Source: a virus. Taken from it: DNA of 64,000 nt. A program made the translations under genes and the position numbers. Location: the IMG/VR virus record IMGVR_UViG_3300027635_000001, positions 1 through 64,000 of that record; one strand, written 5' to 3'. Every line of letters begins with the position of its first letter. Position 1 is the first letter of the stretch. A model generated the notes under the pieces. It worked only from the letters and a program-made list of their open reading frames with translations, was not told the origin of the DNA and did no database searches. Positions 12,354-63,769 of the stretch are shown piece by piece.

Positions 12354-12464
12354 GTGCCTCGAGGTAGCCGCAGCGATCGCCCAGCTGGCCTGCTGGATCG
12401 CGCCGTGGATCGCCGACGAGCCGCCGGAAAAGCCGCGCGTGCATACAAAGATTTGGGGGCTGTG

Positions 12465-13004
12465 ATGACGAAACCGCTTCCCCCGGAAATGCGCAAACGC
12501 AGTCCCGACCGCGTCGACTGGAGCGAGTGGCGGCTCGCAATGCTACGCCGCATGTGGCCGGACAGCGGCATCGGCTGCCCTGAAATTGCCCTTGCCATCG
12601 GATGCGGCGCGACCCGGAACGCCATCATTGGCAAAGCTCGTCGGCTAGGACTTGGGCCTAAGCCATTAATCTCAGGCCAGAGCCACCAAGCCAGGGGCGG
12701 CGCGACCAAACGGGCGAAGTCCGAACAGCAGCGCGTCGTGTCGATGCAGGCGCTGGCCGAGAGGCGCAAAGCGATCTCATCCCCGCAAGCTCTCGCCGAG
12801 CACCGCGAGAAGCAAGCCGCCGCAGGGCCAGCCGCCATCGCGGCGGTCGAGCTCGCGCTGATCAATAATCCGCGGTTCGTCGCGCGGGTCGAGAAGCCAG
12901 CGGACCTCTACGCGCACATGAGAAGCGACAAAGGTTATCAGGACGCCTTGGCCGCGCTGTCGCGCGACAGGAAAACGGGAGAAATATTTCATGGGCGAGC
13001 CTAG
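12465..13004 (+). CDS. GcrA-like cell-cycle regulator homologue
   Basis: WSEWRLAMLRRMWPDSGIGCPEIALAIGCGATRNAIIGKARRLGLGPK matches the GcrA N-terminal DNA-binding signature (W..LW..G.S..qIA..LG.vTRNAVIGK.hRLGL). Confidence 0.75.
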   Translation: MTKPLPPEMRKRSPDRVDWSEWRLAMLRRMWPDSGIGCPEIALAIGCGATRNAIIGKARRLGLGPKPLISGQSHQARGGATKRAKSEQQRVVSMQALAERRKAISSPQALAEHREKQAAAGPAAIAAVELALINNPRFVARVEKPADLYAHMRSDKGYQDALAALSRDRKTGEIFHGRA

Positions 13005-14431: not shown

Positions 14432-14967
14432 TCATCATGGCTATCGACCCCGCAACTATTTTAGGATGGGCGCTAGGCGAGCCGGGGACTATCCCTCGCT
14501 CCGGAGCCGTGCGTTTGAAGGCGCCCGACGACGATCGCGACGTCGCGGCGTTCAACGCGATGTGTTTTCTCATCGACACATGGACGCTCGACAAGCCTGA
14601 CTTCGTCTGCGTCGAGCATTTCATGAACCCGGCGGCGCAGAAATCGGCGGACGCGATCATCCTTCAAATCGAGGTTTACGGCGTCATCGTCGCGATGTGC
14701 CGGCGCTATGGCATCCGATACGCGGCGCCGCAGCGGTCGACGGTAGTCACGCATTTCTGTGGGCCCGGCGCGCCGCGTGACCGTGATTCGCTCAAACGCG
14801 CCGTGGTCCAGCGGGCGATCCTGCTCGGCTACATGCCCAAAGGCGTGAGAGACGACAACCGCGCCGACGCGTGCGCGCTGTTCGATTGGGCCTCTGCGCA
14901 CCACGGGCGCACGCCGCCTCGCGAGCTGCGGCTGTTCGGCGAGCGGGCGGGGACGAGATCGGCATGA
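14428..14967 (+). CDS. RuvC-like Holliday junction resolvase
   Basis: IMAIDPATILGWAL..., VCVEHF..., ...NRADACALFDWA fit the RuvC Asp/Glu motif pattern. GTGA overlap with the HNH gene. Confidence 0.72.
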   Translation: MIIMAIDPATILGWALGEPGTIPRSGAVRLKAPDDDRDVAAFNAMCFLIDTWTLDKPDFVCVEHFMNPAAQKSADAIILQIEVYGVIVAMCRRYGIRYAAPQRSTVVTHFCGPGAPRDRDSLKRAVVQRAILLGYMPKGVRDDNRADACALFDWASAHHGRTPPRELRLFGERAGTRSA

Positions 14968-15887
14968 ATGCGCTCGCCAGATACGATGCAGCCCGCACAG
15001 CCCTCGCTGAGGCTCATAGGATTGATGAGGTCAAGGATATTCGCGACAAGGCCATCGCTTTGGAGGCCTACGCTCGGCAGGCAAAAGACACCTCTTTGAT
15101 TCGGCACGCCACCGAAATCAGATTGCGCGCGGAGCGAAGGGCGGGAGAATTGCTGGCCAAGATTCCGAAGGCGAAGGGCGGCCAGCCCTATCAGAATCCT
15201 ACCCCCTCTCGACCGCAAGCAGTAGGCGCTGAGGTCGCAAAGCCAATGACGCTGGCCGAGATGGGCGTGACAGACACGCAATCGGTCAAATGGCAACGCC
15301 TTGCCGCTCTCTCCGAGGACAAGTTCGAGACCCGTGTGGAGCACGCGAAGGCGCGTGTAACGGATATGACGACGAGTTCGCCGAGCTATTCCAAGGCGAT
15401 CTTCACTGGCGAAAACGAGTGGTATACGCCCGCCGAATATGTCGAGAGAGCGCGTGAAGTCCTTGGAACCATTGATCTCGATCCAGCTTCAAACGAAATC
15501 GCTCAGGAATGGATCAAGGCCGTTACGTTTTTCACCATCGCCGATGATGGATTGACGCGAGAATGGTTCGGAAGGGTTTGGCTCAATCCCCCCTATGCTC
15601 GCGCCACGATGGAGCCGTTCGTTGAAAAGCTTCAGTCTGAGTACCTCGCGGGGCGAGTTACAGAGGCTGTATTATTGACCCATAATTACACCGACACGGG
15701 ATGGTTTCACACAGCTGCCATTTCGGCTTCGGCTATTTGTTTGCTTCGCGGTCGCGTCAGGTTCGTGGCTCCGTCTGGCGAGGAGTGCTCCCCAACACAG
15801 GGGCAAGTGTTCTTCTATTTCGGCGCAGATTCGCGACGGTTTCAGGAGTCGTTCTCACAGATCGGCTTGATTGTGAGGCCCGCATGA
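14964..15887 (+). CDS. DNA N6-adenine methyltransferase (phage Dam / PF05869-type)
   Basis: EWYTPAEYVERAREVLGTIDLDPASNEIAQEWIKA...DDGLTREWFGRVWLNPPYARATMEPFVEKL. ATGA overlap with the RuvC-like stop. Confidence 0.88.
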   Translation: MNALARYDAARTALAEAHRIDEVKDIRDKAIALEAYARQAKDTSLIRHATEIRLRAERRAGELLAKIPKAKGGQPYQNPTPSRPQAVGAEVAKPMTLAEMGVTDTQSVKWQRLAALSEDKFETRVEHAKARVTDMTTSSPSYSKAIFTGENEWYTPAEYVERAREVLGTIDLDPASNEIAQEWIKAVTFFTIADDGLTREWFGRVWLNPPYARATMEPFVEKLQSEYLAGRVTEAVLLTHNYTDTGWFHTAAISASAICLLRGRVRFVAPSGEECSPTQGQVFFYFGADSRRFQESFSQIGLIVRPA

Positions 15888-16519
15888 GTTCGCTGCATGA
15901 CCGCGAGGAATTCAAACGCGGCCGGATTGGCGAGAGGATCGTTGCGCTGATCATGCGCAGCTGCGGATATTTCGTAATTCCGTCCTATGACTACGGCGGC
16001 TCTGACGGCAACAAGGCTCCGAAGATGCAGGGGCCTAAGCTGGCGCTTGTCATCCCTGATTTGGACATCGTCAGGGGCGGGAAACGGCACTGGGTCGAGG
16101 TCAAGACGAAGGATCATGCCGACTTCACGCGAATCACGGATCAGTTAGAGCATGGCATCGACCTTCGCCATTTCGAGCACTATCAGCGCGTCGAATCCGA
16201 AAGCGGTTGCGATGTTGTTGTTTCCGTATTCGAGGAATCCACGGGAGACGTGCTGGCGTCAACGCTTCGACGGATAGCGAAGGTTGGGCGCCTGTCTCCC
16301 CGCTTCAACTGCGGACGTGGTGGTTATTTCTGGCCTCGATCCGTGATGACGCAAATTGCTTCGGTGAGCAGGAACGGAGCCGTTTACGATATCTGCATCC
16401 TGGCGAGACTTGCCGCAAATCCTGGCTTCAGGTGGATTCCAATAAGGGAAGATTTTGAGGGCCTGAAATTTCGAGTTACTGATCGCCCACGCGGACAAGC
16501 TTCGCTGGTGGCCTCATGA
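15884..16519 (+). CDS. PD-(D/E)XK-like nuclease-fold protein, function unknown
   Basis: RIGERIVALIMRSCGYFVIP...LVIPDLDIVRGGKRHWVEVKTK fits a D-x(n)-E-x-K core. ATGA overlaps on both sides (Dam-type MTase upstream, C5-MTase downstream). Confidence 0.5.
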   Translation: MSSLHDREEFKRGRIGERIVALIMRSCGYFVIPSYDYGGSDGNKAPKMQGPKLALVIPDLDIVRGGKRHWVEVKTKDHADFTRITDQLEHGIDLRHFEHYQRVESESGCDVVVSVFEESTGDVLASTLRRIAKVGRLSPRFNCGRGGYFWPRSVMTQIASVSRNGAVYDICILARLAANPGFRWIPIREDFEGLKFRVTDRPRGQASLVAS

Positions 16520-17388
16520 CCGCCCTCCCCCGCATCGCCGCGAACCAGCGCCTGGCCGAGGATCGCAGGCCGCTCGCTGTGGACCTTTTCTGCGGCCTCG
16601 GCGGCTGGTCTGAGGGCTTGCTCGCAGAAGGCTGGGACGTCATCGGCTTCGACATCGAGCAGCACGTCTACGGCGAACATCGCTACCCCGCGCAGTTGGT
16701 CATTCAGGACGTACTGACGCTGCACGGATCGCAGTTCGGGGGCGCCAATCTGATTGTTTGCTCGCCGCCGTGTCAGGAATATTCGTACATGGCGATGCCT
16801 TGGTCGCGCGCGAAGGCGAAGGCCGCGGCGATCCGCGCCGACGCGACGGGCAAGGAACTAGAGCGGCTAAATCGTCTGTTCAACGCCTGCTTTCGGCTTC
16901 AACGCGAGGCTTGCGAGGCGGCTGGGCGGCATATTCCCATGGTGGTCGAGAATGTGCGTGGCGCGCAGGAATGGGTCGGCGCTGCGCGCTGGTCGTTCGG
17001 CTCGTTCATGCTTTGGGGCGATGTTCCCGCGCTCATGCCGGCTACGGTCAGGGCGAGCAAGGTTCCGGGATTCCGCTTCGACGGTAGCGGGCGTTCGTTT
17101 CAATCGGCGAGTGTTGCGGAAACCGGGATCAAGGGCGCGGGGCCGTCATGGGACGCCGCCAAGGGCTGCGGCGCCCACGGGATGGCGCGTTGGACCAACC
17201 CCGCCGAAGGCCGCAAAGGCGCAGGCGCAGGCGCAGGCGCAGAATGGTTCGATAAGAACCTATGTCAACTACCGAGCGCATCGCCGCGGCGCAAAGCCGC
17301 CAGCGCCATGATCGCGAAGATACCGGAGCCGCTCGCACGTTGGATCGCCCGTTGTTTCCTGCCGCGCGCATCGGAGGCCGCAGCGTGA
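16516..17388 (+). CDS. DNA (cytosine-5)-methyltransferase
   Basis: Motif I DLFCGLGGWS, motif IV CSPPCQEYS, motif VI MVVENV, in the standard order. Confidence 0.88.
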   Translation: MTALPRIAANQRLAEDRRPLAVDLFCGLGGWSEGLLAEGWDVIGFDIEQHVYGEHRYPAQLVIQDVLTLHGSQFGGANLIVCSPPCQEYSYMAMPWSRAKAKAAAIRADATGKELERLNRLFNACFRLQREACEAAGRHIPMVVENVRGAQEWVGAARWSFGSFMLWGDVPALMPATVRASKVPGFRFDGSGRSFQSASVAETGIKGAGPSWDAAKGCGAHGMARWTNPAEGRKGAGAGAGAEWFDKNLCQLPSASPRRKAASAMIAKIPEPLARWIARCFLPRASEAAA

Positions 17389-27085: not shown

Positions 27086-27423
27086 GCGATTTTACGATCG
27101 GCCACGGAACCCCGGTGCAAAATCGGATTCCGCAGACGTTTATTCAGCAAGCTCACGAAGTCGCCAAGCGGGGACTCGCGATATCGTCGATGAATGGCTG
27201 GCGCTCTATTGAAACGGCACCGAAGGACGGAACGCGCATCCTCGGGTTTGGGCTATGGGCCGGGGAAATCAACGGCATCGAAACGGTCCCCGAGATGCTC
27301 GCCATCGAGTACGGCGCGGGCGGGGATTATCCGGGATTTGACTGGATCGTCTGCGGAACCGATGCGTATGCCGCATGGATGAAGCCGACGCTCTGGCATC
27401 CGTTGCCGAATCGCCCGGACTGA
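27082..27423 (+). CDS. DUF551-like protein
   Basis: NGWRSIETAPKDGTRILGFG... and the C-terminal KPTLWHPLPNRP match the DUF551 pattern (W.sIe.aPkDG..vL ... THWmPLP). Confidence 0.55.
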   Translation: MSDFTIGHGTPVQNRIPQTFIQQAHEVAKRGLAISSMNGWRSIETAPKDGTRILGFGLWAGEINGIETVPEMLAIEYGAGGDYPGFDWIVCGTDAYAAWMKPTLWHPLPNRPD

Positions 27424-28577
27424 TGGACACGTTCGACCCCGCCGGCCTCGGCGACATCCGCGCCCGCTTCGATCGCGAGACGACACGCCGCTGGACAAAG
27501 ACCGCGCGCGCCGTCAAGCGCGCCATCGTCGCGGACGACGCGCTCGGCATTGGCCCGAAGGCGCCGCGGATGGCGCAACCGGTCGCCGACAAGGCGTCGA
27601 TGTTCAAGCGCTGGCTCGACGAGCAGCTGATGATCGGCGTCGTCGGCCATGACGCCGGGTGGCTCGGGCCGCATGTGCAGGCGGCGGCGGCGCGGGCGTT
27701 GGCTCTGGCGATCAAGGATTACGACCCGGACGAGCCGCGCGACGAAAGCGGCAAGTGGAGCAGTGGTTCCGGAGGCCTGGTTTCTGGCGTCGAGCGCGCG
27801 GCCTTTCCGCCGCATATCCAAGCGCTGAAACTGCCGCCGGCCTGGACTGATGTCCGGATCAATCCGAACCCCGACGCCGATCTGCTGGCGATTGGCAAAG
27901 ACAAAAAGGGTCGCTCGCAATACGTATATTCGGCAAAGTTCCAAGGCGACCAGTCCGCGCAGAAGTTCAACCGGATCGCCGAACTCGAAAGCAGCGCGCC
28001 GGGGATCGCCGCCAAGAACGATGCTAACCGGGCATCGTCGGACCCAACTCTGGCCGAACATGCCGACGCGCTGCATCTCATCATGCAGACGGGCGTGCGA
28101 CCTGGCAGCGAGGACGACACTGGCGCCGACAAGAAAGCCTACGGCGCCACGACGTTGGAGGGTCGCCACGTAACCGGCTCTGGCGCTGATACGGCGCTGC
28201 AATTCGTCGGCAAGAAGGGCGTCTCGCTAAATCTGCCAATCACCAACGAGAGCGTGGCTTCGATGCTGGCATCCCGCGCCGCGAACGCAGGGCCGAACGG
28301 GCAACTGTTCCCGAACGTCAGCGACGCCAGCCTCCGCGATTATGTTCACGGCGTCGCCGGCGCTGGGGTCAAGGTCAAGGACTTCCGCACCCTGGTCGGC
28401 ACATCGACCGCTCGCGCGGAAGTCGCCAAGATAGCCGCGCCAAAAACGGCGGCGGATCGCAAAAAGGCTATAATGTCCGTCGCAAAAGTGGTATCCTCCA
28501 AGCTCGGCAACACGCCGACGATCGCATTGCAGAGCTACATTCATCCGAACGTGTTCGGAGGTTGGGGAAATGGCTGA
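27423..28577 (+). CDS. type IB DNA topoisomerase domain fused to a ~125-aa N-terminal domain of unknown function
   Basis: LPPAWTDVRINPNPDADLLAIGKDKKGRSQYVYS, TGVRPGSE, YGATTLEGRHV, LQFVGKKGVSLNLPI, KVKDFRTLVGTSTA, LGNTPTIALQSYIHPNVF. These supply the Arg/Lys/Arg/Asn/Tyr catalytic set of bacterial/poxvirus-type TopIB. Confidence 0.8.
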   Translation: MDTFDPAGLGDIRARFDRETTRRWTKTARAVKRAIVADDALGIGPKAPRMAQPVADKASMFKRWLDEQLMIGVVGHDAGWLGPHVQAAAARALALAIKDYDPDEPRDESGKWSSGSGGLVSGVERAAFPPHIQALKLPPAWTDVRINPNPDADLLAIGKDKKGRSQYVYSAKFQGDQSAQKFNRIAELESSAPGIAAKNDANRASSDPTLAEHADALHLIMQTGVRPGSEDDTGADKKAYGATTLEGRHVTGSGADTALQFVGKKGVSLNLPITNESVASMLASRAANAGPNGQLFPNVSDASLRDYVHGVAGAGVKVKDFRTLVGTSTARAEVAKIAAPKTAADRKKAIMSVAKVVSSKLGNTPTIALQSYIHPNVFGGWGNG

Positions 28578-29946: not shown

Positions 29947-30789
29947 ATGCCCACCCTCGAGATCACCACCAACATCGGCTGTCCGCTGATGTGCGCATAC
30001 TGCCCGCAAGCCAAGCTGAAGACCTCTTACGGCAAGAACATGAAGTGGTTGTCCTTCACGGACTTCGTGGCTATTCTGGCGAAGGTTCCGCGATACGTGC
30101 GCATCGACTTTTCCGGTATGTCGGAGCCTTGGATCAACAGCGAGTGCACGGCGATGCTGCGCCATGCGCTGCGCCGCGGATACAACGTCGCGCTTTACAC
30201 GACGCTGGTCGGATTGACCGACCCCGACGACGTGATCGGATTGCTGAGGGGGCACCGCGAGCAAGTCGAATGCGTCGTAATCCACTTGCCGGACGATCAA
30301 GGCAATATGCTCGGCTTCATCCCCACCGGGCAATATGACAGGGCTCTAAAGGCATTCATAGCCTTCGATGCAGAAGGCGGGACGAAGTGGTTCCGGTGGA
30401 TGGCGATGGGCGCCGCTGTTTCTCGCAATGATGTCGCTACCACCATGGAATGGATCGCCAACGATCGCGCTGGCTCGCTATCAGGCGAGCGCGTCGAGCC
30501 GGTGCAGCATGAGACGCCGGTGAGCTGTTCGTTCACGCCGTTCTACGATCAGAATGTGCTGCTGCCGAATGGCGATGTGGTGCTGTGCTGCATGGACTAT
30601 GAACTGAAGCACAAGATCGGGAACTTGCTGACGGACGACTATTTCGCGCTGTTCGCATCGCCCGAGATGGGACGGCTCCGCGCCGAGAACACCAAGTGCG
30701 GCGGCGACGGCTCGATCTGCAAGCGCTGCGTGCGGGCGACGCGGTACGAGGTTTCGCCCGGGTTCAAGCAGTTTTGGGCAGCGGCATAG
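29947..30789 (+). CDS. radical SAM enzyme with C-terminal SPASM/twitch-like Cys cluster
   Basis: CPLMCAYC (CxxxCxxC) at aa 12-19. C-terminal ...LPNGDVVLCCMDYELKHKIGNLL...NTKCGGDGSICKRCVRAT. Confidence 0.82.
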   Translation: MPTLEITTNIGCPLMCAYCPQAKLKTSYGKNMKWLSFTDFVAILAKVPRYVRIDFSGMSEPWINSECTAMLRHALRRGYNVALYTTLVGLTDPDDVIGLLRGHREQVECVVIHLPDDQGNMLGFIPTGQYDRALKAFIAFDAEGGTKWFRWMAMGAAVSRNDVATTMEWIANDRAGSLSGERVEPVQHETPVSCSFTPFYDQNVLLPNGDVVLCCMDYELKHKIGNLLTDDYFALFASPEMGRLRAENTKCGGDGSICKRCVRATRYEVSPGFKQFWAAA

Positions 30790-34944: not shown

Positions 34945-34970
34945 GTCGCCGTGTGAGGCGCGACGGCGAC
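34945..34970 (+). promoter_or_regulatory. 8-bp perfect hairpin immediately 5' of the capsid gene ribosome-binding site
   Basis: GTCGCCGT-(10 nt)-ACGGCGAC, followed directly by AGGAGA (34971-76) and ATG 34983. Confidence 0.35.
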
Positions 34971-34982
34971 AGGAGAACCTTC

Positions 34983-35927
34983 ATGCGGCATTCACTCTAC
35001 GACAACCAGCAGCAGCTCGGCTTCCTGCTGGCTCAGACGACCTATATCGAGTCCCAAGTCTATCGGATTCAGTACCCGGAGATCATGTATCCAAAGCTGA
35101 TGCCGATCGACACATCGGCATCGGAATGGGCCAAGTCGATCACCTATTACTCGATCGACCGCGTCGGCAATGCCGATTGGTACGACGGCCAGGCGACCAA
35201 TATCCCGATGGCCGACATCAACCGCGACAAGCGCGAGCAGGGCGTAGAGATGGCCGCGATCGGCTATCGCTACAACCTCGAAGAGATCGGCGTCGCGATG
35301 ATGATCCCGGGCATGAACCTGAGTTCGGAGCGGGCCGAGGCTGCGCGGCGGGCCTACGAGGAATTTATCGACCGCCTCGTGCGCGTCGGCGATACTCGCA
35401 AGAAGATCACGGGCCTGTTCAACAATCCATTTGTGACTCGGACCACGGCGATTGCCGACGGCTCGGGCTCCTCATCCTTGTGGATCAACAAGACTGGCGA
35501 CCAGATGATCGCCGACGTCACCGGCGCGCTGACAGCAGTCTATCAGGGATCGAACACGGTCGAGATGGCCGACACGGTCCTCTTGCCGATCGCCAATCTG
35601 CAACTCCTGGCCAACACGCGCATCGCCAACACCTACGGCAACGTGCTCGACTATCTGATGAAATACAACCTCTGGAAGCAAACCACCGGGCAAGACCTGA
35701 CGATCCTCGGCGTGCTCAGTCTCGACACGGCCGGGATCAATGGGAGCGCGCGGATGGTGGCTTATAGGCGCGATCCGCAGGTAATTAAGTTGCATTTGCC
35801 GATGCCTCATCGTTTTCTGCCCGTGTTTCAGACAGGGCCGATGACTTATGACATTCCTGGCATCTTCCGCGTCGGCTCGGTCGAGGTCAGGCGACCCGGC
35901 GCGGTACAGTATGTTGATGGGATTTAG
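34983..35927 (+). CDS. major capsid protein (DUF2184 / encapsulin-like type)
   Basis: 314 aa. YIESQVYRIQYPEIMYPKLMPIDTSASEWAKSITYYSIDRVGNADWY... matches my memory of the DUF2184 N-terminus. Strong SD. Position fits, after scaffold and decoration genes. Confidence 0.78.
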   Translation: MRHSLYDNQQQLGFLLAQTTYIESQVYRIQYPEIMYPKLMPIDTSASEWAKSITYYSIDRVGNADWYDGQATNIPMADINRDKREQGVEMAAIGYRYNLEEIGVAMMIPGMNLSSERAEAARRAYEEFIDRLVRVGDTRKKITGLFNNPFVTRTTAIADGSGSSSLWINKTGDQMIADVTGALTAVYQGSNTVEMADTVLLPIANLQLLANTRIANTYGNVLDYLMKYNLWKQTTGQDLTILGVLSLDTAGINGSARMVAYRRDPQVIKLHLPMPHRFLPVFQTGPMTYDIPGIFRVGSVEVRRPGAVQYVDGI

Positions 35928-36092: not shown

Positions 36093-36422
36093 ATGCCGAC
36101 CCCAAACGACGAAGCCCCGGCCCGCGTCGGCCGCGCCATATTCCCCGAGCCCGAGGGATTCCTATGCCGCATCGCCAATCCGAGCCAGCGCGCGCGCGTG
36201 ATCTACGACGGGATCAAGAACGCGAAGCCGATCCACATTCCGCCTGGCAACACCATCGAGCCCATAGTCCTATCGAGGGCGCGCATCGAGCAGCTTCGCG
36301 CCGAGGAGTTCGCAAATCCTGAAGACCCAGACCTGAAGGTGGTCGAACTCGGGCCCGCACGCGAGGACGCTGATCATCGCGCCCAGGCCGCGCCAGGCAA
36401 AGCTCCCACCACTCGCCCATGA
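36093..36422 (+). CDS. hypothetical protein sharing an ARVIYDG...PI.I.PG.T segment with the N-terminus of the 59720 giant protein
   Basis: RARVIYDGIKNAKPIHIPPGNTIEPIVLSRARIEQLRAE here, compared with GARVIYDGLANLRPIPIAPGATLRGVDLSDSAANRIRRE there. Confidence 0.5.
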   Translation: MPTPNDEAPARVGRAIFPEPEGFLCRIANPSQRARVIYDGIKNAKPIHIPPGNTIEPIVLSRARIEQLRAEEFANPEDPDLKVVELGPAREDADHRAQAAPGKAPTTRP

Positions 36423-55054: not shown

Positions 55055-56596
55055 TTGTCCCTGACCTTCCGCACATCAGGCGCCTGGGGCCCAGGCACGG
55101 GAGCCAATCTCGCCCCGGCCGACGTCGACAACAATTTCTGGCAGCTGGTGCAGATGGTCGCGGCCAAGGCGACGCAGGGCGTCGGGCTGGTCGCGTTCAA
55201 CATCGTCGGTAACGAGTTGTGGGCGACGCTGAGCGACCACACCATTCTCGGGCCGTACATCCTGCCGGTCGTCCAAATCCAGTTTGTCCCCGGCGGCTGG
55301 CAGCCCAACACGCAATATTACGTCAACCAGATTTTCAGCATCAACGGCTCGACCTACATCGTGCTGGTCAACCACGTCAGCGCCGCCAGCTTCGATCCCG
55401 GGGCCAATGACGGCCATGGCAACGACTATTACGGCCTCCTGCTCTCCAACCCGGGGAACGCGCTGCCCACCGGCGGCGCGGTCGGGATGGTGCTGGAGAA
55501 GGCGACCACAGTCGATTTCGCTGCGGCGTGGGTATGGCCGACGCTCGCCGGACTTCACGACGTGCTCCAGTCGCCGGGGCCGACAACCGGCCAACTGGTG
55601 GAATGGCAGGGCTCGTCGTTCGGCTACGTCTCGCCCAGCGCTCTCGTGGCGGCGCCGCAGAGTCTCTTGGAGCTGACCGACGTTCTGCCGTCGCCAGGGC
55701 CGACCACGGGGCAAGTCGTGACCTGGAACGGATCGGCGTTCGACTTCGAGACGCCAGCCCCCGGCGGCTCCACGACCTTCCAAGGACTGACCGACGTTCT
55801 GCCGTCGCCAGGGCCGACCACGGGGCAAGTCGTCTACTGGGACGGCAGTAACTTCACCTACGAGAGTCTCACCACCAGCCTGCTGACCGACTACGACCAG
55901 CTCACTACTCCTGTCCATCAGTGGGACGTCTTCACCTACGACCTGTCGAACACGCGATGGGAAAATCGTCAGCCGCTGGTCTATAACAGCGGCCACGCCG
56001 GCACCTTCACGCTCGGAATCTCCGACGCTCAGAACCTGATCGACATCGCCACGGGCGGCGCGATCACGATCCCGACCAATGCCACGCTCGCTTTCGCTGT
56101 CGGCAATTTCATGCTGATCAGGCAGAGCGGCTCGATATCATCGCCGTTCTCATTTGCCCCTGCTGGCGGGGTCACCCTCAACGTCGTTTCGGGCAGGATA
56201 GCGCAGCCGCGCGCCATCGGTTCGATCGTGATGCTGCAGAAGATCGGGACTGATGCCTGGGAGGTCTCTGGCGATCTCGCATTTGACAGCTCAGCGTCGG
56301 CGCTTGCCGGCACCGGCACGATCAGTCTCAACCCGCTGGCGGCAGACGTCGAAGTCTTCACCAGCACGCCCGGAGCGAGCCAGACGATCAACGCCAGCGC
56401 CTCACCCACCTATGGGCAACGGATGGTCTTGGTCGTCACCACTTCAGGGACTTCCTCCTGGACGCTGACTTTCGGCACCCATTTCAAGTCCACTGGGACG
56501 CTGGCGACCGGAACCGTATCGGGCAAGGTATTCACCATCATGTTCATCGGCGACGGGACCAACTTCAACGAGATTTCGCGCACCACGGCAATGTAA
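55055..56596 (+). CDS. tail fibre protein with 38-aa repeats
   Basis: TTG start. Repeated L(T/H)DVL(P/Q)SPGPTTGQ(V/L)V.W.GS.F units, typical of fibre shafts in alphaproteobacterial phages and GTAs as I recall. Confidence 0.68.
   Translation: MSLTFRTSGAWGPGTGANLAPADVDNNFWQLVQMVAAKATQGVGLVAFNIVGNELWATLSDHTILGPYILPVVQIQFVPGGWQPNTQYYVNQIFSINGSTYIVLVNHVSAASFDPGANDGHGNDYYGLLLSNPGNALPTGGAVGMVLEKATTVDFAAAWVWPTLAGLHDVLQSPGPTTGQLVEWQGSSFGYVSPSALVAAPQSLLELTDVLPSPGPTTGQVVTWNGSAFDFETPAPGGSTTFQGLTDVLPSPGPTTGQVVYWDGSNFTYESLTTSLLTDYDQLTTPVHQWDVFTYDLSNTRWENRQPLVYNSGHAGTFTLGISDAQNLIDIATGGAITIPTNATLAFAVGNFMLIRQSGSISSPFSFAPAGGVTLNVVSGRIAQPRAIGSIVMLQKIGTDAWEVSGDLAFDSSASALAGTGTISLNPLAADVEVFTSTPGASQTINASASPTYGQRMVLVVTTSGTSSWTLTFGTHFKSTGTLATGTVSGKVFTIMFIGDGTNFNEISRTTAM
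55673..55833 (+). repeat. two identical 47-bp direct repeats 114 bp apart inside the fibre gene
   Basis: CTGACCGACGTTCTGCCGTCGCCAGGGCCGACCACGGGGCAAGTCGT occurs at 55673-55719 and 55787-55833. A diverged third copy lies near 55556. Confidence 0.85.
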
Positions 56597-59494: not shown

Positions 59495-59775
59495 CCGTCA
59501 AGGAACCCATCTTGCACTTGGCCAAGCGTGGCGTGAAGCAGCCGGAATCGCTGAAAGCAGGCGAGATCAAGCGGCTATCCGAATGGGTTGTGTTGGCCTT
59601 TCGCCAGCATCAGCGGGAGGCGGCCCGACTAGTTGGCGAGGACTTTGTCAGAGCGAATCGCGTAGTCGAGAACACCGATAGCGTCTTCGAAGAGCCATTC
59701 CCGTTCCACCGAAAGAGCGATGCTGAAATCTCGGAGAATGTACGAGACGGTATCGCGCGCCGCAGTGAGATATGA
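59491..59775 (+). CDS. hypothetical protein (94 aa)
   Basis: Internal start MTVKEPILHLAKRGVKQPE... with an ATGA overlap. Confidence 0.45.
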   Translation: MTVKEPILHLAKRGVKQPESLKAGEIKRLSEWVVLAFRQHQREAARLVGEDFVRANRVVENTDSVFEEPFPFHRKSDAEISENVRDGIARRSEI

Positions 59776-62700
59776 CCTGACCAACCGGATGCGCGGCGCC
59801 CGCGTGATCTACGACGGGCTGGCGAACTTACGTCCGATCCCGATTGCTCCCGGCGCCACATTGCGCGGCGTCGACCTCAGCGACAGCGCGGCCAACCGCA
59901 TCCGTCGGGAGGGCGAGCTGCAGATCAGCGAGGTCGATCCGCCCGTCTCGGTTGCGGCGGTCGATGGGCAGAAGCCTCCCTTGGTCGTGGTCGGCATGTG
60001 GGGCATCGGCGATAACCTGCACCAGCGCGCCGTCGTCCGGGAGCTGATGAAAACCCGCGATGTATGGTTGGAAACATGCCACTATCTGCTCTACCATGAT
60101 CTCGTCAAACAGGGCCTGAAGCTGCTCTTCCGGCCGACGAGCCTCCGAGCGCAGGCCAAGACGATAGCGCGCGAGCGCGGCATGTTTCCGCGTTCCCCAG
60201 AGCCGCCCCGTAGCGCCCGGCGCATCAAGCTTTGGTATCACCGAAAGGAAATCGAACGAGACGGAAGTATCGTCGAGACCATGATGGCCGAGGGCGGCGT
60301 TGGCGGCGTCAAGCCCGATTTCAGCCTTCCCATTCCTCCCGAGTGGCGCACTGCGGCGCTGCAACTCATCAGCCGATGGGAGATGAAGGGGAAGCCCTTG
60401 ATGGTCTATCGGCCGATCGTCTTGCGCAATGAGTGGAACGGCGCGATGCGCAATCCGGATGAGAGCGCCTACGCCGCTTTGTTCCAACGCATCCGGGATC
60501 TGTTCTTTGTGGTCAGCATCGCCGATCTGGAACCCGGGAAGGAATCCATCGTCGGGCCGGAGCAGGACGCCGACGTCAAGTTGCACCGCGGCGAACTGGA
60601 TTTCCAGACCATGGCTGCGCTCTTCGCCGAATCTGCTCTTTTCTTCGGCAATGCCGGATTTGGCCCCGTGCTCGCCCAGGCCGTCGGAACGCCGCTCGTC
60701 GTCGTCTATGGCGGCCGGGAGAGCTATCTCACCACCGAGCGAGGCGGCGCGCATCTCGCTCCGACGCTCGGAATTAACCCGGACAGGCCCTGCGACCAGC
60801 ACAACGATTGCAAGCGCGACGTGACAGTGAAAACGCCAAACGCCGGGATATGCCCCTGCGACAAGACCATCACGCTAGAGCCGGCATTTGCGCGCTTGGA
60901 CGATTTCCTCGCCAAGCACATTCGAGGCAAGGCCAACACTTTGATCTTCGGCACCGCTTACGTCGATTCGGACCATCGCGTTGCTTTGATGGGCTACTGG
61001 ATCACGCTCACGGAAGCGCTCAATCCGGATTGCGACCTGCTGATCGTCGACAGCGCCTCTCCGCGAATGAAGGAGGTTGCTGGCATCTCCAGTTTTTTGC
61101 CCTACGTCGGCACTGCCAGGGCAAAGCGTCGCATCTTCGACTTTGGCGACAACGTCGGGCATCTGTCGCGTCGGGGGCGGGATGGCTGGGGCCGCGCTTT
61201 CTGCTATGGCCTGCAGGCGGCGATCGACGGCGGGTACGAATATGTCGCCCACATAGAGGGTGATAGCCTGTTCCGGCTGCCAGTGCGCGACGTCATAATA
61301 GAGATGGCGCGCGACAAAACCAAGGTCGTGTCTACGCCCGTCATCGGCACGGATCGCAGTTGGCCCGCATGGCTGGAAACTGGGCTGATGTTCTTCAGCG
61401 TCGATTATCTTCGCACTTGCAATTTCGCGCAAAAATATGATTGGCCAAGCCGCCCCGTTGCGCCGACGCCGGAGGTCGTCGTGCGGCAGATCGTGAGCGC
61501 CAATCTGAAAATGATGGGCTGGCGCGCATGGCGCGGCGACAAGAACCAGATCAGCCGCGATAATGTCGAGGCGCTGGACCTGGATTGGGTGACGCACTGC
61601 CACAGCGATATAGAGGTCTATTCCAGGTTTCTACGCAAGGCCCTCAGTGGAAGGGAGGTAATGCGAAATGACGTGGGACCCGACCAAGCCGTTGATAGGA
61701 CCCGATCCGACCTTGTAGCGTCGCCAGCCGTCAAGCTGAACTTCGGTTGTGGGAGCAACAAGCTCGACGGCTGGCGCAACATGGACGCTGAGATCGACAT
61801 CGAGAAGCCGCTGCCGTTCGAGAGCAACTCGGCGGATGCGATCTTCTCCGAGCACTGCATCGAGCACGTCGACTATTATGCCGCGATCCGTTTTTTCGAG
61901 GAGGCCTTCCGGGTGCTGAAGTCGGGCGGCCTGATCCGGATCACAGTGCCGTCGCTCGAACAGATAATGGACAATGGCGACGAGGAGTATTGGAGGTTTA
62001 CGACCAAGTGGCAGACGATCGGCGCGACCCGGCGCGGGGCGATGCACGCGATCCTCTACGCCCACGGTCATAAGACCGCATGGACGGCCTCGCTGCTGTG
62101 CGCAACGCTGTGCTACGCTGGCTTTGAGAAGCTGGCGAGGCAAGCGCCGGGGCAATCCGACTTTGCCGTCCTGCGCGGCCTGGAGGGCCACGGCAAGGTC
62201 ATCGGCGAGAAGTTCAATGCGATCGAGTCGCTGTGTTTCGAAGGGATCAAGCCGGATGGGATACGACATGAAAATCTCGGAGGAGAAGTTTCCAAGGCGA
62301 TTCTTCCCGCCCAGGCCGCCGCTGTTATCGAACCAATATCCGAACGGGCCGGGGGGATTCGATCCGTACAGACTTTGGGCGAGCAACGAGCGGCACCCCT
62401 CATCTTCGCCACCACCTACGTCGACAGCGACGCCAGCCAAGCCGCGATAGATCAGCCGCTAGTTTTCGTGGACTCGGCGAAGGTCGCGGTCGTTATCGGC
62501 GGCGCGGCTTCGGTCATCGAAGAGATGGCGGCCACTGACGCGCTGCTCGCAGGAACCGGCGTCACGCCGACCTATTTCGTCATCAACGACATGATCCCGC
62601 GCTTCGAGCGGCCATGCCTCGCCATCAGCCTGCATCCGCAAAAGTTGGCGGTATGGCTAGAAGAGCGCAAAGCGGCCGGCTTCCCCGATCCGGGGCAGGT

Positions 62701-63016
62701 CTGGGCGCACGTCAAGCACAAGTCTTACCCCGCCGTGACGCATTCGACCGAGGACTGGCGCGGCTCCTCCGGCCTGTTCGCCATCGCCGTCGCCCGACAA
62801 CTCGGTTTTGAGCGCATAATTTTGTGCGGCGTGCCGATGACGGCACTGGCCGGGCATGTCGTGCGCGGCCCGGCTTTGTGGCGCCCGGCTGAGCAATTCC
62901 TCGGGGGATGGCGCATCCGCAAGGTTTCCATCGCCCCGTATGTGCGGTCGTGGTCGGGCTGGACCGAACAGGCATTCGGACGGCCGGCGCTGGATTTCCT
63001 AGAGGTTGGCGCATGA
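59720..63016 (+). CDS. 1098-aa multidomain protein: RVIYDG-like N-domain + GT-B/GT9 (heptosyltransferase)-like + possible GT-A-like + class I SAM methyltransferase + MptE/DUF115 (Maf)-like domain
   Basis: aa 86-345: VVVGMWGIGDNLHQRAVVREL ... FFGNAGFGPVLAQAVGTPLVVVYGG (GT9-like). aa 668-750: VKLNFGCGSNKLDGWRNMD...FSEHCIEHV...RVLKSGGLIRITVP (MTase). aa 893-1045: ...VVIGGAASV...GSSGLFAIAVARQLGFERIILCGVPM (DUF115-like). Start uncertain (59720, 59738 or 59789). Confidence 0.68.
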   Translation: MLKSRRMYETVSRAAVRYDLTNRMRGARVIYDGLANLRPIPIAPGATLRGVDLSDSAANRIRREGELQISEVDPPVSVAAVDGQKPPLVVVGMWGIGDNLHQRAVVRELMKTRDVWLETCHYLLYHDLVKQGLKLLFRPTSLRAQAKTIARERGMFPRSPEPPRSARRIKLWYHRKEIERDGSIVETMMAEGGVGGVKPDFSLPIPPEWRTAALQLISRWEMKGKPLMVYRPIVLRNEWNGAMRNPDESAYAALFQRIRDLFFVVSIADLEPGKESIVGPEQDADVKLHRGELDFQTMAALFAESALFFGNAGFGPVLAQAVGTPLVVVYGGRESYLTTERGGAHLAPTLGINPDRPCDQHNDCKRDVTVKTPNAGICPCDKTITLEPAFARLDDFLAKHIRGKANTLIFGTAYVDSDHRVALMGYWITLTEALNPDCDLLIVDSASPRMKEVAGISSFLPYVGTARAKRRIFDFGDNVGHLSRRGRDGWGRAFCYGLQAAIDGGYEYVAHIEGDSLFRLPVRDVIIEMARDKTKVVSTPVIGTDRSWPAWLETGLMFFSVDYLRTCNFAQKYDWPSRPVAPTPEVVVRQIVSANLKMMGWRAWRGDKNQISRDNVEALDLDWVTHCHSDIEVYSRFLRKALSGREVMRNDVGPDQAVDRTRSDLVASPAVKLNFGCGSNKLDGWRNMDAEIDIEKPLPFESNSADAIFSEHCIEHVDYYAAIRFFEEAFRVLKSGGLIRITVPSLEQIMDNGDEEYWRFTTKWQTIGATRRGAMHAILYAHGHKTAWTASLLCATLCYAGFEKLARQAPGQSDFAVLRGLEGHGKVIGEKFNAIESLCFEGIKPDGIRHENLGGEVSKAILPAQAAAVIEPISERAGGIRSVQTLGEQRAAPLIFATTYVDSDASQAAIDQPLVFVDSAKVAVVIGGAASVIEEMAATDALLAGTGVTPTYFVINDMIPRFERPCLAISLHPQKLAVWLEERKAAGFPDPGQVWAHVKHKSYPAVTHSTEDWRGSSGLFAIAVARQLGFERIILCGVPMTALAGHVVRGPALWRPAEQFLGGWRIRKVSIAPYVRSWSGWTEQAFGRPALDFLEVGA

Positions 63017-63198
63017 CCGTAGCTGAGTTGATCGAGAAACTGCAGGCCATGCCGCAAGATATGCCGGTCTACCGCTGGGATAGCGAGCGCAGCGCGGATG
63101 GAACCGAGACCGTCCTGGTGACAACCGCTGAGTTGGAAGAGGTTGGCGGGCAAGGCCCGCTCGAATGCGCGCGCGAAACGCGCGTGGTGATAATCTGA
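63013..63198 (+). CDS. hypothetical protein (61 aa)
   Basis: [23 protein letters not shown]... ATGA overlap upstream. Confidence 0.45.
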
Positions 63199-63386
63199 TG
63201 AGCCGCCCGCAGATATTGGTCTACGGCGACGTCATGCTCGACGTGCTGGTGACGGGAAGCTGCAAGCGGGAGAGCCCCGAGGCCCCCGGTGTGCCCGTGC
63301 TGCTGTCCGACAAGATGGTGATGCGACCGGGCGGAGCGGCCAACGTCGCAGTCAATCTGGCGGCTCTCGGCGCGGCCCAGACATGA
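63198..63386 (+). pseudogene. N-terminal 62-codon remnant of an HldE/RfaE-type (PfkB) heptose-7-phosphate kinase
   Basis: [54 protein letters not shown] matches the HldE domain-I N-terminus. The frame stops after 62 codons, whereas the normal domain is about 300 aa. Confidence 0.62.
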
Positions 63387-63400
63387 AAGGAACAGTCACC

Positions 63401-63769
63401 ATGAAAAAGTGGCTTGGCGCCCCGTTCGCGCTGCTGTGGATGTCGTCACCGGCCTTAGCCGGCGGCAGTTCATTCGATGTGGAGCAGCAGGGCTCTGCAG
63501 CCTTCGCCGCGACCCAGGTCAGTTGCGCTTCGACCGCGACGTCGTTTCTCTCGGCGCGAACCGGCGCATCTGGCACGGCCAGGATTTCGGCGACGATCGA
63601 AAACACCGGGACCACTGCGGTTTACGTCGGCGCATCTGGCGTCACCACATCGACCGGCATGCTGCTTCCTGGCATTGTCGGCGCAAGCCTGACGATCAAC
63701 ACGACCGCGGCGCTCTACTGCATCGTGGCGACCGGCACGGAAACCGTGACCGTGCTGGAGACCTATTGA
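63401..63769 (+). CDS. secreted protein with signal peptide (122 aa)
   Basis: MKKWLGAPFALLWMSSPALAGG signal-like N-terminus; AAGGA upstream of ATG 63401 (the track start 63383 is less likely). Thr/Ser/Ala-rich mature part. Confidence 0.55.
   Translation: MKKWLGAPFALLWMSSPALAGGSSFDVEQQGSAAFAATQVSCASTATSFLSARTGASGTARISATIENTGTTAVYVGASGVTTSTGMLLPGIVGASLTINTTAALYCIVATGTETVTVLETY

Follow-up and report, generated by a model that had tools for sequence, protein, structure and literature searches.

The gene and its family

The 64,000-nucleotide stretch analyzed here (positions 1 to 64,000 of IMG/VR record IMGVR_UViG_3300027635_000001, hereafter the window) covers most of the ~73-kb genome of a temperate tailed phage that carries an integrase gene. 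At 59720..63016 on the plus strand, a single unbroken open reading frame (ORF) in the ORF list encodes 1098 amino acids (aa), and its predicted product is a multi-module enzyme. From the N-terminus it comprises a short module shared with gene 36093 (N), a glycosyltransferase (GT)-B-like module (GTB), a GT-A-fold module (M3), an S-adenosylmethionine (SAM)-dependent methyltransferase (MT), and an MptE-like module (M5). An earlier note, made from the sequence alone, had proposed one uninterrupted 1098-aa frame at these positions with five domains; the frame was confirmed, and all five domain guesses survived testing, at differing strengths. Below, L numbers denote related loci or contigs and P numbers homologous proteins; L001 is the phage's own contig, L003 is phage D3, and L004 is Pseudomonas phage P7869.

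The frame could in principle be an artefact in which sequencing or assembly errors fuse separate genes, and other phages do encode the modules in split form (GTB-M3-MT plus a separate M5; MT+M5; orf7, orf12, and orf13 of D3). However, eight assembled contigs from several sources, the longest of 73,072 bp, encode an identical protein (called from the ATG at 59738, 1092 aa). A homolog search returned 187 relatives, more than 50 of which are 1000–1070 aa long and show 44–55% identity over 98% of the query. The 53 full-length homologs are colinear with the enzyme, the resulting 54-sequence alignment has invariant residues in every module, the linkers between modules are in frame, and the frame contains no stop. 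Because of the identical protein on eight contigs, the colinear homologs, and the invariant residues in all modules, we regard 59720..63016 as a single real gene. An assembly artefact, whether a frameshift or several joined genes, is essentially excluded.

The start codon is ambiguous among ATG 59720 (1098 aa), ATG 59738 (1092 aa), and GTG 59765 (1083 aa). In most homologs the conserved Y-D-L is preceded by just 1–3 residues, and the equivalent start here would be the GTG at 59765.

Scans of the whole protein against Pfam, NCBIfam, and PDB sequences, and of the 54-sequence profile against PDB sequences, recovered the methyltransferase alone. The enzyme has no membrane-spanning segment, and no promoter/terminator pair flanks its gene. 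The fusion is absent from 50,697 deposited phage genomes, in which only separate modules occur, and the literature searched holds no description of this five-module architecture. The author of the earlier note likewise knew of no described phage enzyme built in this way, but the architecture occurs elsewhere too, in a large metagenomic family whose modules are shuffled.

Among 120 homologs of this family, the core is GTB-M3 with or without MT. The order is permuted in P0004 (N-GTB-MT-M3-M5), nine homologs have lost the methyltransferase (e.g., P0065), and P0088 has lost M5. Duplications are seen in P0086 (GTB-GTB-M3) and P0070 (GTB-M3-M3-MT), and the split forms among relatives comprise GTB-M3-MT plus a separate M5, MT+M5, and stand-alone M5. 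Some homologs carry inserted Methyltransf_24 domains (an extra one in P0055) or an N-terminal extension of ~215–245 aa. Given these permuted, lost, duplicated, and split architectures, the modules appear to be independent units. Modular evolution is unusually clear in this system: modules have been permuted, duplicated, and split, and both a lost module and a lost sugar-supply gene have left relics.

Glycosyltransferase-like and methyltransferase modules

The GT-B-like module (aa 88–400; 59981..60919, +) resembles GT9 and is a homolog of orf12 of Pseudomonas phage D3. In tblastn searches it is ~30% identical to D3 orf12 and to genes of D3-like phages (E 1e-14), and it falls in phrog_6804 (E 3e-28). 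Some GenBank records label D3 orf12 and its relatives as GT9; D3 orf12 and the P7869 gene themselves have no PF01075 match, so this label gives no transitive homology. When a hidden Markov model (HMM) of the module was run against 16 E. coli proteins with hmmsearch, WaaQ, WaaF, and WaaC ranked first, while GT4, GT8, and GT30 controls scored below 0 bits. Comparison with a four-member E. coli GT9 profile using hhalign gave 87.5% probability (E 3.6e-6), vs. 2.7% for the GT4, 0% for the GT8, and 0.2% for the GT30 control. The confident part of the alignment is the C-terminal Rossmann half, which is in register over the GT9 signature (…E/D-L..l.ali..a.l.i.nDsG..HlAaA.g.P.v.lyG). In a relaxed alignment of low confidence, the invariant G-I-G-D98-x-x-H pairs with the N-terminal G-D motif of GT9. 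Alignments of the full-length profile to single WaaC or WaaF sequences were sensible, with a probability of only 3–5%. PF01075 itself is reached only below threshold, in 13 of 53 relatives (best E 0.0028). The earlier suggestion of a GT9/heptosyltransferase-like GT-B module is thus upheld, and we assign the second module, with moderate confidence, as a GT9-like, putatively GT-B domain of remote homology.

A Cys/His cluster (aa 357–384; 60788..60871, +; family consensus PCDCHSxxHxCDK) lies at the end of this module. Its residues in the present protein are C358, H361, C364, C378, and C380; across the 54 sequences, C358 and C380 are invariant, and C360, H361, and H365 nearly so. The cluster is probably a metal-binding knuckle.

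Two groups of characterized enzymes resemble this part of the protein. WaaC, WaaF, and WaaQ share with it the aligned C-terminal Rossmann half, and adenosine diphosphate (ADP)-heptose genes lie adjacent in the enzyme's relatives; the module here differs in being sub-Pfam, fused, equipped with the extra Cys/His cluster, and encoded in a phage late operon. Kdo2-lipid A is an unlikely acceptor for it. The TibC/AAH autotransporter heptosyltransferases O-heptosylate protein from ADP-heptose (PMC4358343). TibC has an N-terminal beta domain (1–97), a WaaC-like GT-B core, and a 4-Cys iron finger (Cys 339/342/358/370) in a unit of ~400 aa that forms a dodecamer (PMC4358343). The enzyme has a similar order and spacing, with the N module at 1–87, the GT9-like core, and the Cys/His cluster at 357–384. 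This is a likeness of layout; when the whole set of PDB sequences was searched with the family profile, TibC was not retrieved at E ≤ 10.

The third module, M3 (aa 405–645; 60932..61654, +), was examined by AlphaFold2 (AF2) modeling and Foldseek. Its AF2 model is confident, with a predicted local distance difference test score (pLDDT) of 90.9 and a predicted template-modeling score (pTM) of 0.90. Against the PDB it gave 393 matches at E < 0.001, and the top 50 were all GT-A enzymes (prob 1.0, template-modeling score (TM) 0.47–0.58). The structural matches include UGGT, LARGE1, TarP, RmlT, hyaluronan synthase, glycogenin, and LgtC. Along the sequence, strand beta-1 (TLIFGTAYVDSD) is followed by LIVDSASP, an invariant DGWGRAF, and H-I-E-G-D-S. 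The invariant residues H511, E513, G514, and D515 of this last motif (HIEGDS, an ExD variant) come after the strand at E111–115 of the model and may stand in for a DxD motif. PF00535, as a GT-A family model, was matched below threshold in only two of 53 relatives (best E 0.026). M3 is thus not assignable to an existing sequence family. The modeled structure nevertheless argues strongly for a GT-A-fold glycosyltransferase, which the earlier note had put forward as a possibility.

The motif LIF(G/A)T(A/T)YVDSD occurs at aa 408–418 and aa 894–904. The earlier note had it preceding the third and fifth modules; both copies are present, but the first is strand beta-1 within the GT-A module. The second lies in the linker before M5, within a stretch (62390..62479, +; APLIFATTYVDSD...PLVFVDSA) that we interpret as what remains, in degenerate form, of the first part of a second GT-A module. 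Together, LIFATTYVDSD (aa 894–904) and PLVFVDSA (aa 913–920) align with the start of the M3 profile (hhalign 87%, E 3.9e-6) with a 12-column internal deletion. The stretch has an AF2 pLDDT below 50 and is predicted to be disordered, and it is missing from P0002 and other homologs. Relatives P0070, L019, and L037 have two complete GT-A modules. The profile match, the disorder, and these relatives point to a lost second GT-A module as the origin of the second copy; no recent duplication of the motif was detected at the DNA level. A role of the repeated LIFATTYVDSD as a linker or signal motif was considered and rejected, the copies being GT-A strand beta-1 and the relic of a second GT-A start.

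The fourth module (MT, aa 669–845; 61724..62254, +) carries the class I SAM-dependent methyltransferase motifs LNFGCGSN (motif I), EHCIEHV, and RVLKSGG, with G676, C677, and G678 of motif I invariant. It matches PF08241 Methyltransf_11 at E 6e-9, with 36.8 bits vs. a cutoff of 21.2, and 45 of 53 relatives match as well. The best match among PDB sequences is 8k76, a SAM methyltransferase. These matches strongly support its assignment as a class I SAM methyltransferase, as first suggested from the motifs.

The fifth module, M5 (aa 921–1098; 62480..63013, +), is a predicted minimal nucleotide-binding domain of ~178 aa, MptE-like/DUF115-like/GT42-like, with the motifs VAVVIGG..., INDM, and GSSGLFA..LGF.RIILCGVPM. 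The core of its AF2 model has a pLDDT above 95. Foldseek matched it in the PDB to archaeal MptE (8sd5, prob 1.0, E 1.7e-3, TM 0.47) and to the Campylobacter GT42 sialyltransferase Cst-I (2p56, prob 0.97, TM 0.49), and in BFVD to phage proteins annotated as MptE-like (prob 1.0, TM 0.49). The motif GS.G..A...A..LG...I.L.G.(D/P)(L/M) corresponds to the C-terminal part of PF01973, of which MptE is the founding member. Tandem M5-M5 metagenomic proteins (P0122 and P0195, ~355 aa) come closest to this family, with 28 bits vs. a cutoff of 34.6. MptE and Cst-I are thus the best structural matches, from which M5 differs in its minimal size, in TM values of 0.47–0.49, and in scoring below the Pfam cutoff. 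Maf flagellin glycosyltransferases are ~600 aa long with a central DUF115 and are linked to flagellin genes and to genes for CMP-pseudaminic or CMP-legionaminic acid (CMP, cytidine monophosphate). M5, at 178 aa, differs from them. Neither flagellar nor CMP-nonulosonate genes are present in the window or the related loci examined, and the genes next to the fused enzymes include none for CMP-nonulosonate synthesis. The structural matches rank consistently, with TM values below 0.5, and the MptE/DUF115-like fifth module suggested in the earlier note is supported at moderate to weak confidence.

Homologs of M5 number 1113, most of them stand-alone proteins of ~175 aa and the others MT+M5 or tandem M5-M5 forms. 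In Paracoccus phage Pkon1, p38 is a full M5 homolog (E 6e-35) encoded directly after the capsid gene, and D3 orf7 shares the M5 motif only, over 38 columns at 43%. At L074 and L075, M5 follows genes for a DegT aminotransferase, an acetyltransferase, two dehydratase/epimerases, and a DUF5672 protein. Neighbors of this kind, together with heptose kinase/epimerase genes and a capsid gene, favor a glycan-related role for M5 over one in pterin metabolism. A function as pterin pyrophosphokinase is unlikely, given the repeated neighboring sugar genes.

Sugar supply, the N module, and candidate acceptors

The N module spans ~55 aa (aa ~16–72; 59765..59935, +; consensus xYDIxNP..R(I/V)IYDG...I.I.PG...V.L...L..DL). 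Its paralog is the product of gene 36093 (36093..36422, +), a stand-alone 109-aa protein made of an N module and a Pro/charge-rich tail, whose gene comes next after that for the major head protein (34953..35927; phrog_264, E 8e-86). BLASTP aligned the enzyme N-terminus with this protein at 19/45 identities (E 2e-9). A profile built from 75 family N-termini found exactly two copies among the phage's 1204 ORFs, in the enzyme (E 1e-18) and in gene 36093 (E 1e-10), bearing out the earlier observation of an RVIYDG module common to the two.

A word-indexed homolog search with the N-module profile gave no matches; exhaustively searching 1.84 billion representative proteins with HMMER yielded 229 clusters, mostly stand-alone proteins of 80–140 aa. 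Among 143 matches examined (150 listed), 109 are ≤140 aa long, with the module followed by a Pro/charge-rich tail. Where the N module is fused in larger proteins among the matches examined, it stands directly before the GT-B-like module (N+GTB, N+GTB+M5). Stand-alone N loci were located with a degenerate DNA pattern, and the order protease, major head protein, N protein was also found in three other viral contigs (L061, L063, and L065). Across the related loci, the fused N module co-occurs with M5 in a group of 72–78 kb phages, and shorter forms without N are also without M5. The small N-protein family corresponds to no Pfam or PHROG family. Several of the small N-protein tails end in a common K-P-T-L-G-L-P-G-like C-terminal peptide.

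The relatives' loci link the family to heptose. At L008, matches to rfaE_dom_I (E 1e-80), rfaE_dom_II (E 1e-32), and heptose_epim (285 bits vs. a curated 274.6) come immediately 3′ of the homolog. This cassette of HldE-I, HldE-II, and HldD homologs (kinase, adenylyltransferase, and epimerase) is the canonical lipopolysaccharide (LPS)-type set. L011, the contig of P0016, has the same cassette 3′ of the homolog, plus an extra methyltransferase, and L078 has a kinase and an epimerase 3′ of a stand-alone M5 gene. In the present phage, a 73-codon ORF at 63165..63386 (+), directly 3′ of the enzyme gene, retains the first ~60 codons of a heptose-7-phosphate kinase (HldE domain I). It matches NCBIfam TIGR02198 rfaE_dom_I at E 3e-17 over model positions 6–63 of 315 and is 58% identical to the N-terminus of the intact L008 kinase. 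The relic marks a recombination junction, where a lysis cassette and two large late ORFs, together with a signal-peptide ORF (63383..63769), have replaced the ADP-heptose cassette; the rest of that cassette is nowhere in the ~73-kb phage. Because the kinase relic lies directly 3′ of the gene, an ancestor presumably carried the heptose cassette at this position. With its own cassette lost, the phage must use host ADP-heptose, if heptose is still used. These genes in relatives and the relic here lend independent support to the earlier idea of a heptose-containing glycan, and we infer ADP-heptose as the likely donor for the GT9-like module.

Three observations bear on the host. The window encodes a GcrA-like cell-cycle regulator (12354..13004, +), the major head protein resembles that of Rhizobium phages, and members of the enzyme family are present in Bradyrhizobium and Mesorhizobium chromosomes. 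On these grounds the host would be a Gram-negative alphaproteobacterium, probably one of the Rhizobiales.

The family gene is always found within virion-assembly operons, at a position that varies by phage group. Mesorhizobium prophages and phage D3 have it between the head and the tail genes, and in relatives of the present phage, a late morphogenesis operon with the enzyme gene after the distal tail genes is conserved in synteny. A three-module version occurs in prophages of Bradyrhizobium sp. McL0616 and Mesorhizobium sp. WSM4083. D3 orf7, orf12, and orf13 and Pkon1 p38 resemble the enzyme in placing its modules, as separate genes, inside the head-tail cluster of cultured phages; they differ in being unfused and in having no GT-A module. 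D3 orf13 is a methyltransferase (PF13489) with no detectable relation to the MT module.

We propose that the protein is a soluble late enzyme acting as a single-polypeptide glycan assembly line whose acceptor is most likely one or more virion proteins, a reading to which we give about even chances. Its solubility is suggested by the lack of a membrane segment. The GT9-like module would transfer L-glycero-D-manno-heptose from ADP-heptose to the acceptor, and the GT-A module would add a second sugar, with a metal held by the E-G-D motif. The methyltransferase would then O-methylate, and so cap, the glycan, and the MptE-like module might add or activate a further residue. The N module could dock the enzyme onto a capsid-associated partner, and the phage, having no cassette of its own, would draw ADP-heptose from its Gram-negative host, probably of the Rhizobiales. 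A virion acceptor is favored because the gene is always in morphogenesis operons, M5 and N paralogs lie beside capsid genes, the protein appears soluble, and viral precedents exist. The broader proposition, that tailed phages of Gram-negative (rhizobial) hosts coat their virions with a methylated heptose glycan by means of a capsid-addressed five-module enzyme, with a phage-borne ADP-heptose supply in some relatives, is more doubtful, and we offer it tentatively.

The concept has precedents both in multi-domain viral glycan synthases and in phage virion glycosylation. To our knowledge, phage-encoded virion glycosylation is experimentally established for mycobacteriophages only, in which it shields particles from antibodies. 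No sequence match to the mycobacteriophage enzymes was found in the search of the 50,697 phage genomes. In mycobacteriophages such as Che8 (gp110), Corndog (gp38), and Myrna, phage glycosyltransferases glycosylate capsid and tail-tube proteins (Freeman et al. 2023, as summarized in PMC12363180). These enzymes differ from the present one in being separate and single-domain and in belonging to phages of Actinobacteria, and neither a heptose pathway nor a fusion is described there (PMC12363180). In PBCV-1, the 638-aa A064R combines two rhamnosyltransferase domains with a methyltransferase, and A111/114R has three glycosyltransferase domains; both serve the capsid glycan (PMC7826918). Like the enzyme described here, each is one viral polypeptide with several glycosyltransferase domains, A064R also includes a sugar O-methyltransferase, and the glycan goes onto the major capsid protein of the virus itself (PMC7826918). 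PBCV-1 is a giant virus of eukaryotes, whereas the present enzyme belongs to a tailed phage and combines GT9-like, GT-A, MT, and MptE-like modules with an N module; homology in sequence would not be expected. Three elements are new: the family of 55-aa N modules, an ADP-heptose cassette paired with the enzyme, and an MptE-like module of minimal size.

Several points weigh against the proposed virion glycosylation. PF01075 does not match the enzyme even at E ≤ 1, with E. coli WaaC as positive control scoring 277 bits; PF01973 does not match it either, and reaches only four of 53 relatives at E ≥ 0.11, below the cutoff. The full three-gene cassette is present in only two of ~20 close relatives (L008 and L011), L078 has a kinase and an epimerase only, and this phage has the kinase relic only. 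GT9 enzymes classically act on LPS. The phage is temperate, as its integrase indicates, and lysogenic conversion is possible. Finally, the D3-like homolog adjoins an annotated anti-CRISPR gene and a transcriptional regulator, which suits a host-directed or anti-defense role too.

The enzyme could instead remodel the host envelope by placing a methylated heptose side chain on the LPS core or a surface glycoconjugate, leading to lysogenic conversion, superinfection exclusion, or a block on re-adsorption of progeny to lysing cells. We consider this unlikely. The last three points above speak for it, since the module resembles GT9, a family of classical LPS core heptosyltransferases (WaaC giving the 277 bits on PF01075), and the D3-like homolog occupies an accessory spot beside the anti-CRISPR gene and regulator. 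The presence of the family in Bradyrhizobium and Mesorhizobium chromosomes agrees with it too, and LPS-core transferases are likewise soluble peripheral cytoplasmic enzymes, which fits the lack of a membrane segment. The gene's own setting points the other way: it sits inside a late operon, overlaps the upstream ORF without a promoter/terminator pair of its own, and is ~12 kb from the integrase gene. Envelope remodeling also sits poorly with an N module common to a head-module protein and with M5 homologs beside capsid genes, and no link to lipid A-core or Wzx/Wzy/WaaL-type genes was found.

A further candidate acceptor is phage DNA, whose hydroxymethylated bases the transferases might glycosylate. 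Phage clusters put hexose, N-acetylhexosamine, Kdo, or heptose on 5-hydroxymethylcytosine (5hmC) (bioRxiv 10.1101/2023.12.21.572611). They resemble the present system in combining phage GT-A and GT-B enzymes with sugar-activating genes; a mono- and di-heptose product depends on a GT-B enzyme together with a kinase-like enzyme and a cytidylyltransferase, and some clusters lie near structural genes (bioRxiv 10.1101/2023.12.21.572611). TarP is both a top structural match of M3 and the top PDB homolog of the DNA GT-A enzymes (bioRxiv 10.1101/2023.12.21.572611), and the window has a weak match to a C5-cytosine methylase (16516..17388, +). However, the 5hmC clusters lie beside a C5-methyltransferase and a 5-methylcytosine (5mC) dioxygenase, or beside thymidylate-synthase-like genes (bioRxiv 10.1101/2023.12.21.572611), none of which is near the enzyme gene. 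The ORFs scanned in this phage, the one beside the methylase among them, yielded neither a 5mC dioxygenase (TET/JBP-like) nor a hydroxymethylase, and more than 40 kb separates the enzyme gene from the genes for the DNA methylase and replication. The relatives' cassette is of the LPS type (HldE/HldD), whereas the DNA system has a HAD/APH-like set, and the links to the N module and to capsid genes would be left unexplained. DNA hypermodification is therefore very improbable.

Other acceptors or roles are also improbable, if somewhat less so: self-glycosylation or priming on the N module, modification of the small N protein only or of a host protein, or an anti-defense or metabolic takeover function in which nucleotide sugars of the host are consumed. 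The free-standing N paralog with its Pro-rich tail could serve as a substrate, the L007 homolog lies near an extracellular contractile injection system (eCIS) cluster, and the neighboring anti-CRISPR gene in a D3-like phage could be read in the same direction. Direct evidence favors none of these variants, and four conserved catalytic-type modules together with donor-synthesis genes point to a defined glycan rather than to donor hydrolysis.

If virion glycosylation is correct, it would be without earlier example in phages of Gram-negative bacteria, and protein heptosylation would be seen for the first time outside autotransporters, with the N module representing a new family of "address" domains. 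Virion glycosylation and multi-domain glycan enzymes would then extend to temperate phages whose hosts are Gram-negative soil bacteria, and the chemistry would be distinct in its heptose, its methylation, and a third transferase-like unit. If the target is LPS or DNA instead, the protein would even so represent a conversion or DNA-modification enzyme of a new type.

Genomic setting and further observations

In this phage, the enzyme gene is followed by the kinase relic, three late ORFs (122, 307, and 730 aa), and lysis genes (lysozyme/amidase). In close relatives the rightward late operon ends with this gene and, where there is one, the sugar cassette. The earlier description of the gene as the end of the tail operon is thus approximately right: the gene comes 3′ of the tape measure and distal tail genes, and in relatives no late gene comes after it, whereas in this phage the relic, the three ORFs, and the lysis genes do.

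The early and replication genes of the window encode the integrase, RecT, a RecE-like exonuclease, a Dam-like N6-adenine methylase (14871..15887, +), the weak C5 methylase match, DnaB, and the GcrA-like regulator. The packaging and head genes comprise the large terminase, portal, topoisomerase IB, and radical SAM/SPASM genes, followed by the head protease and major head protein. The type IB topoisomerase gene (27375..28577, +; Topoisom_I, E 5e-20), between the portal and head genes, is unusual for a tailed phage both as a gene and in its place. The radical SAM/SPASM gene (29947..30789, +) lies inside the head module and may encode a second virion- or peptide-modifying enzyme. A homolog with 53% identity (L044:14474-15325) is found ~2 kb downstream of a glycosyltransferase gene in that viral contig. 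The tail genes comprise a 1544-aa tape measure gene and then distal tail protein genes. One distal tail protein (55055..56596, +) has a CBM_5_12 carbohydrate-binding module (E 1.5e-8) that is conserved in relatives, which suggests a glycan receptor.

In D3-like phages (P7869, L004 5001-7630; D3, L003 7184-9143), the GT-B-like and methyltransferase genes occupy an accessory spot inside the head-tail cluster. A 742-aa GTB-M3-MT member at L007 (1-12229; ENA ERZ25039522 contig_33727) lies a few kb from an eCIS cluster (sheath, Pvc16_N, and eCIS_core AAA ATPase). Transposase genes lie between this family member and the cluster, and a DUF5131 gene and an integrase gene come after.

Two further genes were observed on the phage's own contig past the window end. 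Downstream of the lysis genes, L001:19140-19355 has a weak Acb2/Tad1-hairpin match (anti-CBASS/Thoeris sponge type), and L001:22233-22925 is a PNP_UDP_1 nucleoside phosphorylase gene.

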